Assembly (NCBI GenBank): GCA_944381205.1
Contig: CALWKG010000004.1
Location: 28,868-92,867 of the forward strand
Length of the DNA stretch: 64,000 bases
Source of the DNA: an uncultured Clostridia bacterium
GTDB taxonomy: Bacteria; Bacillota; Clostridia; Christensenellales; UBA1242
Reading direction: 5' to 3'
This document shows, one piece after another, positions 3,059 through 63,445 of this stretch. The notes beneath the pieces are model-generated. The model was not told the origin of the DNA. It searched no databases and saw only the letters and a list, made by a program, of their open reading frames with translations. A program made the position numbers and the translations under genes. The first letter of the stretch is position 1. The number at the start of each line of letters is the position of its first letter.

Positions 3059-3298
3059 TTTTACATTAAACGAATTAGTTTATTTATATGGGTTTTAATA
3101 ATTAAATATTGATTTTAAAATATAATGTTTCGACATAAATAATATAAAGTATTTGAATATTGTTTGCAGGAGAATTATAAAAAAATTAATATAAGTAAGG
3201 TTTATTTAGAAAAATAGAAACAAAATATATAATTTGTTTAAATTGAAAAACATTTATTATATAAAATAAAATCATATCTTTTATAATTGCTATACCAA

Positions 3299-3525
3299 GA
3301 TAAAAACATTTGTTTTGTAATTATAATAATGTGATAAATAATTTGTTATGTAATTAAAATAATAAAATAAGACATTTATTTCGTAATTAGTACAATGAGA
3401 TAAAAAAATGGTTATGTAATTAATACAACGAGATAAAAAATTTGTTATGCAATTATTGTAATGCAATAAAAAATTTTGGTATATAGTTAATATAATGAGA
3501 TAAAAACATTTGTTTTGTAATTGCC
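3299..3525. repeat. Array of about seven degenerate ~33-bp direct repeats (GATAAAAACATTTGTTTTGTAATT-type)
   Basis: First and last units share an identical 24-mer GATAAAAACATTTGTTTTGTAATT (3299-3322 and 3499-3522) exactly 200 bp apart. Five degenerate units (GATAAATAATTTGTTATGTAATT, GATAAAAAAATGGTTATGTAATT, GATAAAAAATTTGTTATGCAATT and others) lie between. Confidence 0.75.
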
Positions 3526-14075: not shown

Positions 14076-14159
14076 CTTCTTAACCTTTGACAATTTTATT
14101 ATAACATACAATTTTTAAAATTTAAAGACCTACTGCCAAATTTTTTTATATTTTTCAAA

Positions 14160-15400
14160 AAAGTTTTTTATTCCTTCGATTAGGGGACTCTTCGTCAGTC
14201 CGTCACAGTAGGCAACTCTCAGGGTGACGTGTCATTCTGAGATGGGTAAACTTGTTCGGCTTTCGAAGAATCCCCTATCTCAACGACGTACACTTGTACT
14301 ATTGCATACCTTCGCTTAGGGGATATTTCGTCAGCCCATCAATGTAAGCAGGCTCAATATGACACACAAAACCGTCATTCAGTGTTCTTATGTCATTTTA
14401 AGTATCTCTAAGTGTTTGTTTTCCGTATTTTTGCGACCCACGCTCATACGTGATTGTAAGTTGCAACGCAAATATTAACTTATTTGCATACGCAACACGG
14501 ACAATCACTATTCGCTTTATCCCAAAAATCTAACGATTTTCGGGAGCCCTATTTAATTTAACGATTTTCGGGAACCCTGTTTTCCCGTCATTCTGAGAGC
14601 CGACCTGCAACGACCGACTCCCGAAGAATCCCCTATCTCGAAGATGGATAATTTGCTTAAATATCTCTAAGTGTTTGTTTTCCGTATTTTTGCGACCCAT
14701 GCTCGCACGTGATTTTTTGTCACCGCTCCCATTTTATCAAATGTGAGTAATTATCAATCACTACTCGCTACGTCACAACTTGCGATGCTTAGCATTTTGC
14801 TACCGCAAACTTGCCACTTGCACGCAACTTGTTCCTTATTCCCAAAAATCTAACGATTTTCGGGAGCCCTGTTATTTTTTTTAATTTGCGGGAGCCCTGT
14901 CATTCAAACCGTGTGAGCCACGTTTTTATTTACCATAATCCATACTACCCCAAAACTTATCTCAAAAAAAACCACAAACCCATAAGTAAACCCCAAGGAA
15001 AACAAATATCTTAGAGATATAAAGTACACTTATACTGTTTTCTCCCACCTATTATGAGATTCTTCGCAAGCCGGTCAAGTATGCCCATCTCAGAATGACG
15101 GCGCTCATACGTGATTGTAAGTTGCAACGCAAATATTAACATATTTTCTTACACAACACATACAATCACTATTCGCTTTTTCCCAAAAAATTTGCAATTT
15201 TTTGGGAGCCCTCTACGTCTTTAAAATTTGAGACCCTTCGTCAGCCTATCACAGTAGGCAACTCTCAGGGTGACGGAAAAAACGGGTGATATTCCATCAA
15301 CCCATTAAAGCAGGTATTTCTCCGGGTGACGAGAAGTACGGGGTTTAAAAATTTCTAACTATTTTAGAAAACCCTGTTTAGATATACTCACAACTAAAAC
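14160..15400. repeat. Mosaic repeat cluster R1 (modules A, B, C, D, E in several copies and orientations)
   Basis: Copies read by eye:
- B-A palindrome at 14181-14288.
- C (TATCTCTAAGTGTTTGTTTTCCGTATTTTTGCGACCC) at 14403 and 14662.
- D hairpin at 14441-14516 and 15102-15177.
- E hairpins at 14521, 14841 and 15182.
- A-C composite at 14584-14698, with a reversed copy at 15003-15102. Confidence 0.85.
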
Positions 15401-15498
15401 ATATTATTTATCTGCTTTTTTTGCTACTGTACTCGTCTTTTGTTAAAAGCAAGTTTTTAAATTACTCGTATTTATGTTTCTCTTTTTTGCGCGCGGGT

Positions 15499-15596: not shown

Positions 15597-15675
15597 GTTG
15601 TTTTCGCTTGTTTTGGGTTGTTTTGGGTTGTTTTAGGTTGTTTTAGGTTATGTTTAGGTTATCTTTTGATTATCT
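15597..15675. repeat. 10-11-bp tandem repeats (GGTTGTTTTG / GGTTATGTTTA type), about 8 units; a second short array lies at about 15811-15853
   Basis: Read directly: GGTTGTTTTC GCTTGTTTTG GGTTGTTTTG GGTTGTTTTA GGTTGTTTTA GGTTATGTTTA GGTTATCTTTT. Confidence 0.8.
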
Positions 15676-15960
15676 TTAACTACTTTTTTTATTGATTTCT
15701 AAACTACATCTCGCTTTTTTTATTGATTTTTTTTAACAACCTTTAAATTAAATCTTTAATTTTTTTGTTTACCTTAGTTTATATCTAAGTTGTCATTGGT
15801 TTATTTTTTAGTTATCTTTGGGTTATGTCTAGGTTATCTTAGGTTATGTTTTAATTATGACTTTTTACTTTTTTTTCCTATATTTTAATTGCTTATTGAT
15901 TACTTTTTTTAAAAAATTTTTTTCACTTATTTTTTTGATTATAATTTTTTATTAATTGTT

Positions 15961-17183: not shown

Positions 17184-17560
17184 CTTTTATTCTCCTTTTT
17201 TAAATTCACTATTAATAATAATAGTCTGTGGATATGTGAAAATCTTTTCTCGCTAACTATTTTACCGCTATTTATCATATTTGTACAGACTTTTTTTTAA
17301 AATTTTCAAAATATTTTTTATTGACACTTATCAACAATTTGTGAATAACTTTTTCTTTCCCGACCGAATATTCTTGCGGTACTATATAACTAATTAATTA
17401 ATAATACACTTTTTAAGTTAATATTTTTAGGCAATGTTAATTTGTGAATAACTTTTTTAACATACAATATATGCGGTCGTTTTTAGTTTAAAATAAAAAT
17501 TACCACTATATTTAGTGATAATTTTTTCACACAAAAAGTTTATAACTTAGTTTTATTGAC
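17184..17560. other. oriC: Candidate oriC segment (dnaA-dnaN spacer) with DnaA-box-like 9-mers
   Basis: TGTGGATAT 17227-17235. Convergent pair TTATCAACA 17328-17336 and TGTGAATAA 17340-17348. TGTGAATAA 17443-17451. Each is 1 mismatch from consensus. The spacer is AT-rich and in the position typical of Firmicute oriC. Confidence 0.55.
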
Positions 17561-19185: not shown

Positions 19186-19600
19186 GCCTGCGGTGACTTT
19201 TCTAAGCGGTTTTTTAAGTTAAGCAGTGTGGTTGTAGTATGAGTGTACATCTTTGAGATAGGGGATATTTCGATTGCCCGTCGTTGCTGGTCGGGGCTCA
19301 ATATGACGTAAAAAAAGGTGAAATGACGGGTTGCACATTGTTGAGATATGAAACCCTTCGTTAGCCTATCAAAGCAGGCACTTCTCAGGGTGACGTGTCA
19401 TTCTGAGTATAATCCCCTAGGGTTACTACGTCATTCTGAACCCGCTTACCTGACTGACTCTCGAATAATCCCCTAGGGTTATTCCGTCATTCTGATATGG
19501 ACAAACCTTGACTGGCTAACGAAGAATCCCCTATCTCAAAGACGGATAATTTGTTTAAAGTATCTCTAAGTTTTTGTTTTCCGTATTTTTGCGACCCGAA
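19186..19600. repeat. Mosaic repeat cluster R2 (modules G, B x2, A x3, C)
   Basis: G (GCGGTGACTTTTCTAAGCGG...) at 19190. B-type units at 19261 and 19351. Three direct A units at 19396, 19429 and 19485. A-C composite at 19484-19598. Confidence 0.85.
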
Positions 19601-25807: not shown

Positions 25808-26610
25808 TCACCGCTTATTTCTCTTCGTCATTCTATTTTTCTTCGTCATTCTGAGCCTCGACCCGCAAACGACGGACCTCCGAAGAATCCCCCATCTCAG
25901 CGACGAACACCTGTCATTCTATTTTTCTTTGTCATTTTATTTTTCTTCGTCATTATATTTTTCTATGTCATTTTCCTTCGTCATTCTGAGCGAAGCGAAG
26001 AAACCCATATCTCGAAGACGCAAAATTAGTACTATTACTGTTGCATACCGCTACTTAGGGAACCCTTCGTCAGTCTATCATAGTAGGCAATTCTCAGGGT
26101 GACGTGTCATTCTGAGCCTCGACCCGCAACGACGGACTCCCGAAGAATCCCCGTCGCTCAGCCACAACCTTTTAGGTGCTTGCTCAAAATTAATTTAAAG
26201 GCACAATGATTTTTTTACAAAAATCAAAACGTGCCACTATCAATTAATTTTTCGCCCTATCCCAAAAATCTGACGATTTTCGGGAACCCTATGCACAAAA
26301 GTGAGTAACGCACCACTTTCGGTCGGGCTTTCGCTTCTCACCGCCAAACGAAAATTTTGTTTGACAATGTCAAAAAAATTTTGCGGTGACTTTCTAATAG
26401 GTTAGATTAAGTTTAGTAGTATACGTTGTGTTACATGTATATCTCTTCGCTTATGAGATTCTTCGTAAGCCGGTCAAGTCTGCCCATCTCAGAATGACGA
26501 CTAAGAACAAGTTGCATATCTTCGCTACTTTTTTCCGTCATTCTGAGCCTCGACCCGCAACGACGGACTCCCGAAGAATCCCCTATCTCAAAGACGTCAC
26601 ACTCACATTG
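25808..26610. repeat. Mosaic repeat cluster R3 (18-bp CGTCATT tandem units; modules A, B, F, E, G)
   Basis: Starts at the base after the gyrA stop. A units at 25846, 25980, 26106 and 26536. B at 26058. F at 26157-26235. E at 26261-26284. G at 26384. Reversed A at 26452-26499. Confidence 0.85.
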
Positions 26611-29088: not shown

Positions 29089-29267
29089 AATTAAATCACT
29101 CCTTTCTATAAATATACGTAGGTATTATACAATTATTCCTTTTTTTTGTCAAAGTTATTTATTAAATTTAATTTTAAATGTCATTTGACTATTAAAAAGA
29201 TAAATCAAACAAAAAAAAGTTTTTTTGGGGGTTATTTCTCATACTCAACAAATATAAAATTGAATTT

Positions 29268-29645
29268 AAGCCAGCGGTGACTTTCTAATAAGTCAGATTA
29301 AGTTAAGCAGTATGGTTGTGATATGGATTGTACGTCTACGAGATATGGGATTATGCTCAGAATGACGGAAAAAGTGGCGAAGATATGCAACTTGTCCTTA
29401 GTCGTCATTCTGAGATGGGCAGACTTGACCGGCTTACGAAGAATCTCATAAGCGAAGAGATAAAATTAGTAACAATACAGGTTGTCAGTCTTTGAGATAG
29501 GGTTACACTCAGCCACGACCTTTTAGGTGCTTGCTCAAATTTAATTTACCGGCACAATGATTTTTTATAAAATCAAAATGTGTAACTATCAGTTATTTTT
29601 TTCGCCCTATCCCAAAAATTTGACGTTTTTTTTGCGAGCCCTGTT
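29268..29645. repeat. Mosaic repeat cluster R4 (modules G, reversed A, A, F, E)
   Basis: G at 29275. Reversed A ending at about 29368. A at 29403-29450. F at 29508-29583. Degenerate E at 29611-29640. Confidence 0.85.
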
Positions 29646-35282: not shown

Positions 35283-35490
35283 TCGTCATTCTGAGCAAAG
35301 CGAAGAATCCCCGGGGTTGCTTCGTCATTCTGAGAGTAGACCAGCAGCGATGGACAATCGAAGAATCCCCTGTCGCTCAGCCACGACCTTTTAGGTGCTG
35401 GCTCAAAATTAATTTAAAGGCACAATGATTTTTTTACAAAAATCAAAAAGTGCTAATAACAAATAACTTTTCGCTCTATTTAAAAATTTG
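35283..35490. repeat. Mosaic repeat cluster R5 (A x2, F, degenerate E)
   Basis: A at 35284 and 35323; F at 35376-35450. Confidence 0.85.
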
Positions 35491-36720: not shown

Positions 36721-37005
36721 ATATCGAAGATGTATTTTTCCCGTTATTTTATTTTATTCGTCATTCTGAGTACATTTCGTCATTCTGAGCGAAGCGAAGA
36801 ATCCCCCGGGTTGCTTCGTCATTCTGAGAAGGACCCACCTGACTGGCTTTCGAAGAATCCCCTGTCTCGAAGACGTATAACCATACTGTTGCATACCTTC
36901 CATTAGGGGATATTTCGCTAGCCCATCTTTGCGGGTCGACACTCAATATGACGTTTCCCGTCATTCTGAGCGACAGCGAAGAATCCCCCATCTCGAAGAT
37001 GTATA
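36721..37005. repeat. Mosaic repeat cluster R6 (A x4, B x1)
   Basis: A units at 36768 (truncated), 36778, 36817 and 36959. B at 36903-36953. TCGAAGATGTAT occurs at both ends (36724 and 36992). Confidence 0.85.
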
Positions 37006-37054
37006 ACTCATATAATAACGACTTTTTTTTTATCCATTTCACCCTATTAATAAC

Positions 37055-37082
37055 TTGCCATAAAACAAGGTATGAGTATAAT
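37055..37082 (+). promoter_or_regulatory. Probable greA promoter (TTGCCA-16 nt-TATAAT)
   Basis: Hexamers read directly at 37055-37060 and 37077-37082. Confidence 0.45.
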
Positions 37083-37103
37083 ATCCTAAAAGGGACAAAG
37101 ATT

Positions 37104-37604
37104 ATGTATAACGAACTTACCGAAGGTGATATAAAAAAAATGCAGGAAGAAATTGACTATCGTATGACGGTTTTAAGACCAAGGATAACAAAGGACATTG
37201 TGGAAGCCAAAGCCCACGGCGATTTAAGTGAAAATGCCGAGTACCGTGCATCAAAGAGAGAAAACGGTCAAAACGAGGGAAGAATAGAGTATTTGCAGGC
37301 TATGATACGAACTGCCAAAATAATTAAACCAAACAATGACCCAAACCTAGTTGGCATTTTTGATAAAGTCACCGTTGTTTTTGAAGAAGATAACAGCGAA
37401 GAAACTTTTCAAATCTCAACCACAATGCAAAACGACACTACAAAGGGAATAATTAGTAAAGATTCTCCTTTTGGTCGTGCTGTATTTGGTAAAAAAATAG
37501 GGGATAAAGTACTTGTAAAGGTTAACCCAGAGTACAGTTACTATGTGACAATTAAAAAAATTGAAAAAGCAACAGGAAACAATGTAGATTTACCTATAAG
37601 TTAA
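37104..37604 (+). CDS. greA: Transcription elongation factor GreA
   Basis: AKAHGDLSENAEYRASKRENGQNEGRIEYL matches the GreA coiled-coil signature. The true start is taken as ATG 37104 (MYNELTEGD), because the track's upstream extension runs through repeat DNA. Confidence 0.9.
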   Translation: MYNELTEGDIKKMQEEIDYRMTVLRPRITKDIVEAKAHGDLSENAEYRASKRENGQNEGRIEYLQAMIRTAKIIKPNNDPNLVGIFDKVTVVFEEDNSEETFQISTTMQNDTTKGIISKDSPFGRAVFGKKIGDKVLVKVNPEYSYYVTIKKIEKATGNNVDLPIS

Positions 37605-45903: not shown

Positions 45904-46839
45904 ATGAACGTAAAACAAAAAGTTTTAAGGCAAATACAGGACTTAAAGACCAATGCCGAAAGTGTCGCACAGCAAAATTTAGACAGGGCACTTAGCGATA
46001 AGGAATTTAAACAAGCATACCTAAAAATAAAGTCGCTAAACTATGATATTGCAAAGTTGGAATTTTTTAATAAACCTAGCAACCAAAAACGTCTAGCGCT
46101 AAAAAAGGTTCAAAGTTTTGCCAGCCTTATATTAAAAAGATTAGGGTTAAGTTTTGACGATTTTAAGCCAAAATACAACTGCAAATATTGTAACGACACT
46201 GGCTTTGTAAACGGCAAATATTGTAAGTGTTACTATGACAAACTTAACACAATTATTTTGAACAATATTAACGTAGATATAGATAAAACTCACACCTTTA
46301 AAAACTGCGATTTTAGTATTTTTGATAATCCAGAAAAAATAAAAAACGATTACAAAAAAATACAAAATTGGGTAGAAGATATAGAAAATTCTAAGTATAA
46401 AAATTTGCTTATTAGCGGTCAAACAGGGGTAGGAAAAACTTATTTGGTAGAATGTATCTGTAATACCCTTTTACAAAAGGGTAAATCCATTAGTTTTTTT
46501 ACCGCCTTTGCTCTCAATAATATGTTTTTAAAGTACCATACCACTTTTGACGACAACAAGGGTGCGATTTTGGATAGCATTATAGATTGTGACTTTTTAA
46601 TTGTAGATGACCTTGGCAGTGAACCTATTTTTAAAAAGGTTAACGAAGATTATCTCTATCTTGTACTAAACGAAAGACTTTTAAGGCACAAAACAACCAT
46701 TGTCACCACCAATCTAACTTTAAGGGGTATACTAGATAGATATGGGGATAGGACTTTTAGCCGAATTTGCAACAAGGCAAATACCATTACTATTAATATT
46801 GAAAATGATGATTTAAGGCTAAGGAGAAATAAAAATTAG
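45904..46839 (+). CDS. dnaI: Primosomal helicase loader DnaI (DnaC/IstB-like AAA+)
   Basis: N-terminal zinc motif CKYCNDTGF..CKC, Walker A GQTGVGKTY, Walker B LIVDDLGSE. Confidence 0.8.
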   Translation: MNVKQKVLRQIQDLKTNAESVAQQNLDRALSDKEFKQAYLKIKSLNYDIAKLEFFNKPSNQKRLALKKVQSFASLILKRLGLSFDDFKPKYNCKYCNDTGFVNGKYCKCYYDKLNTIILNNINVDIDKTHTFKNCDFSIFDNPEKIKNDYKKIQNWVEDIENSKYKNLLISGQTGVGKTYLVECICNTLLQKGKSISFFTAFALNNMFLKYHTTFDDNKGAILDSIIDCDFLIVDDLGSEPIFKKVNEDYLYLVLNERLLRHKTTIVTTNLTLRGILDRYGDRTFSRICNKANTITINIENDDLRLRRNKN

Positions 46840-48480: not shown

Positions 48481-49696
<1,216 letters not shown>

Positions 49697-56324: not shown

Positions 56325-56335
56325 TTTTAATATAA

Positions 56336-56364
56336 AAGCCCAAACAATTGTTGGGCTTTTTTTC
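56336..56364 (+). terminator. Intrinsic terminator after rubrerythrin
   Basis: AGCCCAA-ACAATTG-TTGGGCT followed by T7. Confidence 0.8.
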
Positions 56365-56550
56365 TGCAAACTTTTATTAAAAATATGTATAGAAAGCCAA
56401 TCTTTAACTTTTTTGTAGCAAAAAGTCTATTTCGTTTAAATGTAATATTATGTTTATTTATGTGCTAATCTTTTTGTTTTAATGGAGTTTTATTTGTTTG
56501 TAAATTTATTTTTTGTGTGATAAACTGCTAATTATTAAAAGGCGGTGCTT

Positions 56551-59242: not shown

Positions 59243-59475
59243 CTGTCATTTTACTTTTTTTAATTTTTATTATATTCTGTCACTCCTTTTTTCCGTCATT
59301 CTGAGTCTATTACGTTATTCTGAGTATATTAAGTCATTCTGAGCGATAGCGAAGAATCCCCCATCTAAGCGACGTTCAATTCGTCATTCTAAGATAGTCT
59401 ATCCGGCTCGACTTTCGAAAAATCCCCGCTTTAATGACGTTATTTGCGTAGTACAACCATATTGTTTAATTTGCT
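59243..59475. repeat. Mosaic repeat cluster R7 (A-type units x4 plus linker module)
   Basis: GTCATTCTGAG-type starts at 59294, 59313 (degenerate), 59332 and 59383. CGAAGAATCCCCCATCT at 59350. Confidence 0.8.
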
Positions 59476-63295: not shown

Positions 63296-63445
63296 TTGAG
63301 ATATTTCGCCTGCTTTTCTCTGTTGGTCGGCTATCAGAATGTCGCTCACACGTGATTGTAAGTTGCAACGAAAATACTAACTTATTTGCGTACGCAACAC
63401 GGACAATCACTATTCGCCATGTCACAACTTGTGATATTTAATTTT
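63296..63445. repeat. Mosaic repeat cluster R8 (reversed A remnant plus module D)
   Basis: D hairpin copy at 63343-63417, preceded by ...CTATCAGAATGTCG, the same junction as at 15085-15104. Confidence 0.8.

Follow-up and report, generated by a model that had tools for sequence, protein, structure and literature searches.

A 64-kb stretch from the replication-origin region of an uncultured Clostridia bacterium (the window, to whose positions all coordinates refer) carries a mosaic of short repeats in eight of its intergenic regions, and the question is what these repeats are and how they came to be there. A preliminary description, drawn from the letters alone, had named the commonest repeat module A and a reverse-oriented relative of it module B, and did not recognise the family. 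The reading that we favour, and hold to be probable, is that module A and its reverse variants are CGTC-tagged repetitive extragenic palindromes (REPs) of the kind known as NTS or SRM motifs, cleaved by a nuclease of the Ssn family that is encoded elsewhere.

Anatomy of the repeat unit and covariation of its stem

The general form of the unit is 5'-(C/T)GTC, A-N4, GA-G [insert] C-GA, N4'-T, C(C/T)-3', and with its dominant stem the unit reads 5'-(C/T)GTC, ATTCT, GA-G [core] C-GA, AGAAT, CC-3'. An unpaired GTC tag stands directly 5' of a hairpin and a C directly 3' of it. The tag is followed by a 5-bp lower stem, tandem G.A/A.G, a G-C pair and an upper part with an insert of 5-45 nt. Tails at the 3' end read CCCC, CTCA or CCCA, and a related unit from Novosphingobium ends in CCA. 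About 10 of the window's units continue into a 3' extension, ATCTCRAAGACG.

Chance does not account for the copy number. The head CGTCATTCTGAG (at most one mismatch) has 23 matches in the window against 0.05 expected, and the tail CGAAGAATCCCC has 15 against 0.06, which agrees with an earlier count by eye of roughly two dozen copies. With relaxed settings the scan yields about 27 genuine units, every one of them inside the eight intergenic regions in which the mosaic had originally been seen; the subfamilies of variable cores were also found as described. The clusters have a GC content of 41% as against 33% for the window, lower than the figure of about 50% first given for the modules. All units are intergenic, as had been stated, with an open reading frame (ORF) at 36948 as the sole apparent overlap; we judge this ORF over-extended because its GreA domains begin only at residue 57. 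The longest GreA ORF (36948-37604) starts inside the sixth repeat cluster, and the true greA start is probably near 37105.

Some units stand alone; others form head-to-head dimers (14185/14231, 19351/19397 and 26060/26106) or take part in mosaics with other hairpin modules. Among the latter, repeat finding identified two that have three copies each, one of 100 nt (DNA folding z = -4.2) and one of 119 nt (z = -3.7), in line with the preliminary view that further repeated modules exist.

The sequence of the lower stem varies and its pairing is kept. Three types are present in the window (ATTCT/AGAAT, ACCCT/AGGGT and ATATT/AATAT), and module B is indeed a reverse-oriented relative of module A, with the different but compensated stem ACCCT/AGGGT. 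Across genomes, stems such as ATCCT/AGGAT, ATTCC/GGAAT, ATGCT/AGCAT and ATGTT/AACAT were found as well. In an alignment anchored on the conserved non-stem letters only, 81.5% of the lower-stem cells are paired, compared with 64.1% in shuffles, and 94 cells are changed on both sides where 21.8 would be expected, a number reached by none of 500 shuffles. All slid registers of the lower stem pair at 52% or less. Among loose matches without the ATTCT stem, 41 of 230 are fully complementary, as against 3.4 expected. Structure is therefore conserved across copies, in the form of compensatory lower-stem changes.

The reverse approach, in which the stems alone were fixed, recovered the remaining letters: CGTC precedes the stem in 260 cases and TGTC in 69, the 3' flank is CC, and the internal triplets are overwhelmingly GAG/CGA. 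Across phyla, tag (GTC), tandem GA and 3' C are kept while the stem covaries, which points to recognition by a protein.

The stability of the fold depends on the arrangement. Head-to-head (B-A) pairs, first seen as imperfect palindromes, give hairpins of 97 nt, whose z scores for the two strands are -5.5/-6.5 and -2.5/-4.8; the dimer at 14181-14277 reaches -43 kcal/mol (z = -5.5 on the plus strand, -6.5 on the minus strand). Single long-core units, in contrast, have no significant fold of their own (z -0.65 to +1.3), and short units are weak (z about -1.8).

CGTC-tagged REPs and the Ssn nucleases

CGTC-tagged REPs were defined by Di Nocera, De Gregorio & Rocco (2013, BMC Genomics 14:522; PMC3733652). 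They have an unpaired CGTC or TGTC tag, a stem that opens with A-T pairs and a short CCA-like tail, form mostly head-to-head dimers, often heterodimers, lie between genes with a preference for gene 3' ends, and vary in copy number among strains, with no dedicated transposase (PMC3733652). The superfamily takes in dRS3 of Neisseria and RPE-4 and RPE-6 of Rickettsia, and was reported in Proteobacteria, Chlorobi, Bacteroidetes, Spirochaetes and Thermotogae (PMC3733652).

Most of these diagnostic features recur in the window. The unpaired CGTC/TGTC tag is represented by the 23 heads; A-T pairs occupy stem positions 1 and 2 in ATTCT/AGAAT and ATATT/AATAT, and position 1 only in ACCCT/AGGGT; the predominance of head-to-head dimers has its counterpart in the three dimers of the window (z -2.5 to -6.5); and no dedicated transposase flanks the units. 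Judged by this anatomy, the core module belongs to the known CGTC-tagged superfamily as a structural variant. The structural reading given at the outset, a modular architecture like that of REP or BIME elements, was right; the novelty that it implied was not, since the core module matches the CGTC REPs (PMC3733652) and resembles NTS/SRM (PMC11893778), and the family is in part an already described one.

The class of CGTC REPs overlaps the NTS/SRM motifs of Ssn nucleases. An oriented and longer version of dRS3 is NTS, CGTCATTCCCGCGMAVGCGGGAATCYRG (Chenal et al. 2025, Nat Commun 16:2388, PMC11893778). SsnA, a single-domain GIY-YIG protein of 94 aa, binds and cuts NTS as single-stranded DNA (ssDNA) only, and on one strand only; the 3 nt 5' of the palindrome determine cleavage, the C just 3' of it determines binding, the loop can be replaced or extended, and ssn genes are typically flanked by NTS/SRM-type motifs (PMC11893778). 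In module A, GTC stands directly 5' and C directly 3' of the palindrome, so that the conserved parts are the determinants of SsnA, and the variable parts (stem and insert) are what SsnA tolerates.

This correspondence extends to ssn genes themselves. A GIY-YIG query on plasmids led to Ssn-type genes, including one on a Planktothrix plasmid that has a module A match 240 nt upstream. Units of the form TGTCATTCTGAG-TGAAA-CGAAGAATC lie on both sides of this gene, together with inverted partners and head-only tandem partial repeats. Three more Ssn-clade genes, on metagenome contigs, are flanked by GTCA-N4-GAG...CGA-N4-TC units; one case has a 37-nt insert, and one contig, of 63% GC, has long inserts as in the window. 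The window's unit variant was thus found to flank Ssn-clade genes (single-domain cd10448 GIY-YIG) in all four loci examined; the four proteins were picked as close relatives of one another and therefore represent one clade. With the Planktothrix Ssn as query, the only homologs retrieved were cyanobacterial relatives. In three of the four loci the ssn gene lies inside a restriction-modification or defence operon, the contexts being MmeI with DISARM drmA; HsdM, Uma2, PIN and HsdS; and HsdR with HsdM.

Head-only tandem partial repeats are common to the Planktothrix ssn flanks and to the window at 59295-59343 and 25820-25990. In the window they consist of GTCATTCTGAG and about 8 nt, have a period of about 19-23 nt and are stacked upstream of a complete unit. 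Such stacks may be what repeated rounds of cutting and repair have left immediately 5' of the tag.

The unit is by no means confined to the window. An exact-pattern scan with one genome per species returned at least 117 stretches with the motif. Hosts among the matches listed include Clostridia metagenome-assembled genomes (MAGs), Saccharibacteria/Patescibacteria, Chloroflexota, Chitinophagales, Acidobacteriota, Melainabacteria and Omnitrophota, as well as gamma- and deltaproteobacterial MAGs and 'Campylobacter sp. UBA1713' with dozens of copies. In the latter (DCIZ01 contigs) the unit CGTCATTCTGAG-GGAGGCGTAGCCGAC-CGAAGAATCCCC is very dense, dozens of copies falling within about 300 kb, and sits inside a larger genome-specific repeat, with a second tandem GA in the upper stem. 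Unit variants are also found on plasmids of cultured Granulicella, Calothrix, Planktothrix, Novosphingobium, Methylocystis and Methylosinus. Among the matches listed, units are almost always intergenic.

Other searches were negative. No recurrent neighbour gene was found among the matches listed, where 106 flanking ORFs carried 171 Pfam families, each seen at most three times, and all-against-all clustering of the ORFs around units gave no recurrent family. The motif had no match in 2.9 million viral contigs and is therefore not phage-borne. There was no match for the window-specific 3' extension in JGI metagenomes or for the whole 1.2-kb first cluster in a plasmid BLAST, and a literature search by unit sequence strings gave unrelated primer matches only.

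The unit with its tandem GA is missed by the published SRM search pattern, and it is present in at least 10 phyla, including Gram-positive Clostridia and Patescibacteria. Tentatively, the GA-type unit GTC-A-N4-GAG...CGA-N4'-T-C might be a distinct, uncatalogued specificity class of the Ssn/SRM system, part of an ssDNA-targeting module for genome dynamics or defence. If so, the system would be broad, reaching beyond transformation in Neisseria and other Pseudomonadati, and the host species would represent a recent burst.

Turnover at the clusters and its possible causes

The eight clusters and their units are as follows.

Cluster 1, 14160-15400: between a gene for a 234-aa protein and dnaN; six CGTC units and other hairpin modules
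14185-14228, minus strand: CGTC unit, stem ACCCT/AGAGT (module B of the preliminary description), head-to-head partner of 14231-14273
14231-14273, plus strand: TGTC unit, stem ATTCT/AGAAT, 22-nt core (module A)
14321-14363, minus strand: TGTC unit, compensated stem ATATT/AATAT
14441-14540, plus strand: 100-nt hairpin module (family D12, 80-88% identity, z = -4.2), with other copies at 15102-15201 and 63343-63442
14587-14631, plus strand: CGTC unit, stem ATTCT/AGAAT, 24-nt core
15057-15099, minus strand: CGTC unit, stem ATTCT/AGAAT
15231-15274, minus strand: CGTC unit, stem ACCCT/AGGGT
Cluster 2, 19186-19600: dnaA-recF spacer; units 19263-19307 (minus), 19351-19394 (minus), 19397-19426 (plus, truncated), 19430-19471 (plus) and 19486-19529 (plus)
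Cluster 3, 25808-26610: downstream of gyrA; head-only partial repeats at 25820-25990; units 25845-25890 (plus), 25980-26005 (plus), 26060-26103 (minus), 26106-26150 (plus), 26456-26498 (minus) and 26537-26581 (plus)
26149-26267, plus strand: 119-nt hairpin module (family D10, z = -3.7), with other copies at 29500-29618 and 35368-35486
Cluster 4, 29268-29645: units 29325-29366 (minus, degenerate) and 29404-29446 (plus)
Cluster 5, 35283-35490: downstream of pyk; units 35285-35310 (plus) and 35324-35368 (plus)
Cluster 6, 36721-37005: between tRNA-Val and greA; head-only repeat at 36760; units 36779-36804 (plus), 36818-36860 (plus), 36908-36952 (minus, ATATT/AATAT) and 36960-36986 (plus)
Cluster 7, 59243-59475: head-only tandem partial repeats at 59295 and 59314; units 59333-59359 (plus) and 59383-59425 (plus)
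Cluster 8, 63296-63445: a copy of the 100-nt hairpin module, joined to a degenerate unit in reverse orientation (63296-63343)

Comparison of the window with four conspecific loci, one of which, 97-98.5% identical, was aligned in full, places the differences at the clusters. In the fully aligned strain, 14148-15290 is replaced by an unrelated arrangement of 417 nt. In a conspecific strain the unit copy number of cluster 2 is changed at about 19.47 kb, cluster 3 is rearranged downstream of gyrA, with an inversion, and a 358-nt segment of cluster 4 (29179-29536), bounded by the 11-nt direct repeat AAATTTAATTT, is absent. The spacer of cluster 7 measures 551 nt in the window and 610, 848 and 849 nt in three conspecific strains, the length differences being whole modules between repeated GTCATTCTGAG heads. 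Two relatives (89% and 87% GyrA identity), with synteny kept and short spacers, lack units of all stem types over the 22.5 kb covered in each. As units are present in conspecific strains and absent from the relatives of 87-90% GyrA identity, their expansion is recent and lineage-specific.

Cleavage by an Ssn-family nuclease would explain this turnover in the following way. The tagged strand would fold when the DNA becomes single-stranded, as could be the case during replication, repair or the uptake of foreign DNA; a small single-domain GIY-YIG Ssn nuclease would bind the folded unit and nick it just upstream of the tag; and cleavage and repair, together with homologous recombination between repeated heads, would lead to gain, loss, inversion and shuffling of modules. 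Among the roles considered in the preliminary description, a protein binding site or a non-autonomous element comes closest to this mechanism, while nothing specific was found for a role as RNA.

Several observations weigh against such a nuclease, or against so close a kinship with the published motifs. Published CGTC families have a perfect stem of 8-9 bp and a loop of 4-5 nt (PMC3733652), as against 5 bp and 5-45 nt here. Taken singly, units form weak hairpins (as DNA, -2 to -3 kcal/mol and z about -1), and lower-stem mismatches have no excess of G.T over A.C (3 versus 5), hence no independent evidence for a single functional strand. Most Ssn genes were placed in Gram-negative bacteria (PMC11893778). 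The published SRM pattern, HGTCWYN(0-2)YYVSBRHN(0-5)WNVSBRGN(0-2)RNCYNB, has no match in the window, which is why the Ssn link was tested directly at ssn loci; it has no match in the Planktothrix ssn flanks either, and does match a canonical NTS control. Repeated heads or the 11-nt direct repeat border the strain differences, and the junctions that could be resolved are of a kind that plain recombination or slippage, without a nuclease, could produce. Finally, the search for an Ssn homolog came back empty (E > 0.8) for the window, about 45 kb of conspecific loci, the relatives and the 117 motif loci. A cognate Ssn in the host, and the cleavage of its units, are therefore steps that we infer. 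The host DNA covered by this search amounts to the 64-kb window and about 7 kb seen only in conspecific loci, and a single-copy ssn gene could easily lie outside it.

The alternative that survives best is that the units are relict or passively spreading CGTC REPs without a dedicated enzyme, neutral or mildly selfish, maintained and reshuffled solely by homologous recombination, slippage and gene conversion between repeated heads. No transposase was tied to the CGTC REPs by Di Nocera et al., who proposed the loss of such an enzyme (PMC3733652); the surroundings of the units yielded neither Ssn nor RAYT nor any other recurrent gene; and all strain differences have repeat-bounded junctions. However, recombination alone seeds no new intergenic sites, and eight are occupied here with none in the relatives of 87-90% GyrA identity. 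Moreover, the cross-phylum conservation of GTC, tandem GA and 3' C around a covarying stem suggests recognition by a protein, and the same variant flanks ssn genes elsewhere. We consider purely passive spread unlikely.

RNA-level roles (mRNA stabilisation, attenuation and insulation) have been proposed for the REPs of E. coli, and the units might likewise act mainly as RNA, that is, as hairpins in 3' untranslated regions that stabilise mRNA, attenuate read-through or insulate genes. Convergent spacers are favoured over divergent ones across genomes (30 versus 10 among the matches listed), 11 of the 14 units in the tandem spacers of the window are oriented as the genes, head-to-head dimers are very stable hairpins on either strand, and a case has been made for the transcription of many REPs (PMC3733652). 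In other genomes, however, no orientation bias relative to transcription was seen (19 co-oriented versus 22 anti-oriented, and 15 versus 19). In addition, no T-tail or terminator-like site coincides with any unit, G.U is not in excess over A.C, and the RNA form of NTS is not bound by SsnA (PMC11893778). Rfam, an early suggestion for checking the family, gave no match in the clusters: only two tRNAs reach the gathering score, and the clusters stay empty at E <= 1 (whole window) and E <= 10 (14100-15450). We rate a principal role as RNA as distinctly unlikely. Two structured RNAs were rejected on sequence reading: a hammerhead or other self-cleaving ribozyme, as the hammerhead CUGAUGA...GAAA register is missing from the core, and a K-turn, as there is no 3-nt bulge; neither has an Rfam match.

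Mobilisation as REP/REPIN elements by a RAYT or an IS200/IS605-type Y1 (HUH) transposase is improbable. A hairpin with a 5' tetranucleotide tag and inverted dimers fits the general architecture, and in 21 of 27 units the tagged strand falls on the presumed template of the lagging strand, a bias that is confounded with gene orientation and unit clustering. The tag is CGTC and not GTAG, and published work has found no RAYT flanked by CGTC units (PMC3733652). A phmmer search with E. coli RayT and IS200 TnpA as queries (E <= 10), the check originally suggested, found no homolog among 5253 six-frame ORFs, which came from about 1 Mb of sequence surrounding units.

Classical MITEs (miniature transposable elements with inverted repeats), with the dimers of about 97-110 nt and their inverted ends as miniature transposons that have 12-bp terminal inverted repeats (GGGGANTCTTCG...CGAAGANTCCCC) and are moved by a DDE transposase, have almost nothing to recommend them, since target-site duplication is inconsistent (TA/TA around 14181-14277, not around 26056-26152), many units are solitary or tandem, no transposase is present in the window or recurrent near units elsewhere, and the conserved parts (tag, GA, C) are internal and not terminal.

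The genomic setting and known repeat systems

By its GyrA homologs alone, the host would be an uncultured member of the Clostridia (79% GyrA identity to 'MAG: Clostridia bacterium' and 75% to Christensenellaceae). The window is of low GC (33%), and its cumulative GC skew has a minimum near 19-20 kb. Its main genes are as follows.

Minus strand: parB, parA, rsmG, mnmG, mnmE, jag, yidC and rnpA, then dnaN and dnaA
Plus strand: recF, gyrB and gyrA, then yabP, queH, a P-type ATPase gene, pyk, greA and glmS
Plus strand, further genes: DnaD/DnaI-like loaders, a BclA-like collagen protein and AcnX

No transposase gene is encoded in the 64 kb, as had been noted before; an IstB-like match at 45904-46839 was rejected as a transposase and is a helicase loader adjoining a DnaD-domain gene. 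The product of the gene at 48521-49696 combines a collagen triple helix with a BclA C-terminal domain, and a long repeat of 9-nt period runs within the gene. This BclA-type collagen gene and yabP suggest, from gene content, a spore-forming organism.

Four DnaA-box-like sites are located in the dnaA-dnaN spacer (17227-17451) and three at 1535-1623; with at most one mismatch allowed, there is none in the dnaA-recF spacer, the site of cluster 2. Very AT-rich tandem arrays lie downstream of parB at 1800-2250 and 3265-3520, one with an 8/12-nt period (ATAGATAAATAT-like) and the other with a 33-nt period and about 7 copies. An 11-nt periodic repeat (GGTTATGTTTA-like) occupies 15620-15857, between cluster 1 and dnaN. 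At 56330-56405 on the minus strand, Rfam's Trp_leader family has a match below threshold (30.4 bits, where 41 is the gathering score; E = 0.035) that is probably due to chance.

For specialists on repeats, most of this is familiar, in that one more lineage has mosaics of CGTC-type REPs. What is new here is the GA-type architecture missed by the published pattern, the presence in Clostridia and several other phyla, and the turnover at strain level. The Ssn-linked class of motifs appears wider than the published search pattern and reaches Clostridia and several candidate phyla. How CGTC repeats spread was a question left open by Di Nocera et al. in 2013 (PMC3733652). Conspecific gut strains that differ almost only at the clusters, together with near relatives that have no units, offer a natural system for studying this spread. 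We know of no link between a host of this type, Gram-positive and probably spore-forming, and natural transformation. On the practical side, the units should be masked in annotation because they create spurious ORFs and over-extended starts such as that of greA.

Among known systems, the BOX elements of Streptococcus pneumoniae are likewise modular, hairpin-forming intergenic repeats of a Firmicute with few module types, without sequence relationship to the present family; to our knowledge, no cross-phylum core motif is known for BOX. NIMEs and the BIMEs of E. coli share the alternation of short palindromic units with other modules and are hot spots of strain variation, whereas the interleaved modules are here species-specific and unrelated in sequence. 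The units of BIMEs carry a GTAG tag and are associated with RAYTs. In REPIN-RAYT systems (Bertels & Rainey 2011), a long, thermodynamically meaningful hairpin arises from a pair of inverted units, as here (z = -5.5), but the tag is another one, no RAYT was found here, and solitary and tandem units are common in the window.

CGTC REPs have been published in five phyla, none of them Firmicutes, while the present host is a Clostridia MAG and the exact motif extends beyond those phyla to Chloroflexota, Acidobacteriota, Patescibacteria, Melainabacteria, Omnitrophota and others. They are like the window's units in the tag, the A-T stem opening, perhaps the C-rich tail, the head-to-head dimers and the strain-variable copy number, and also in the intergenic site, the preference for gene 3' ends and the lack of a flanking transposase. 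The NTS/SRM-Ssn systems differ from what is seen here in that our host is Gram-positive and the published SRM pattern is unmatched; they have in common with it the GTC 5' and the C 3' of an oriented hairpin, the extendable loop, and repeats that cluster around genes.

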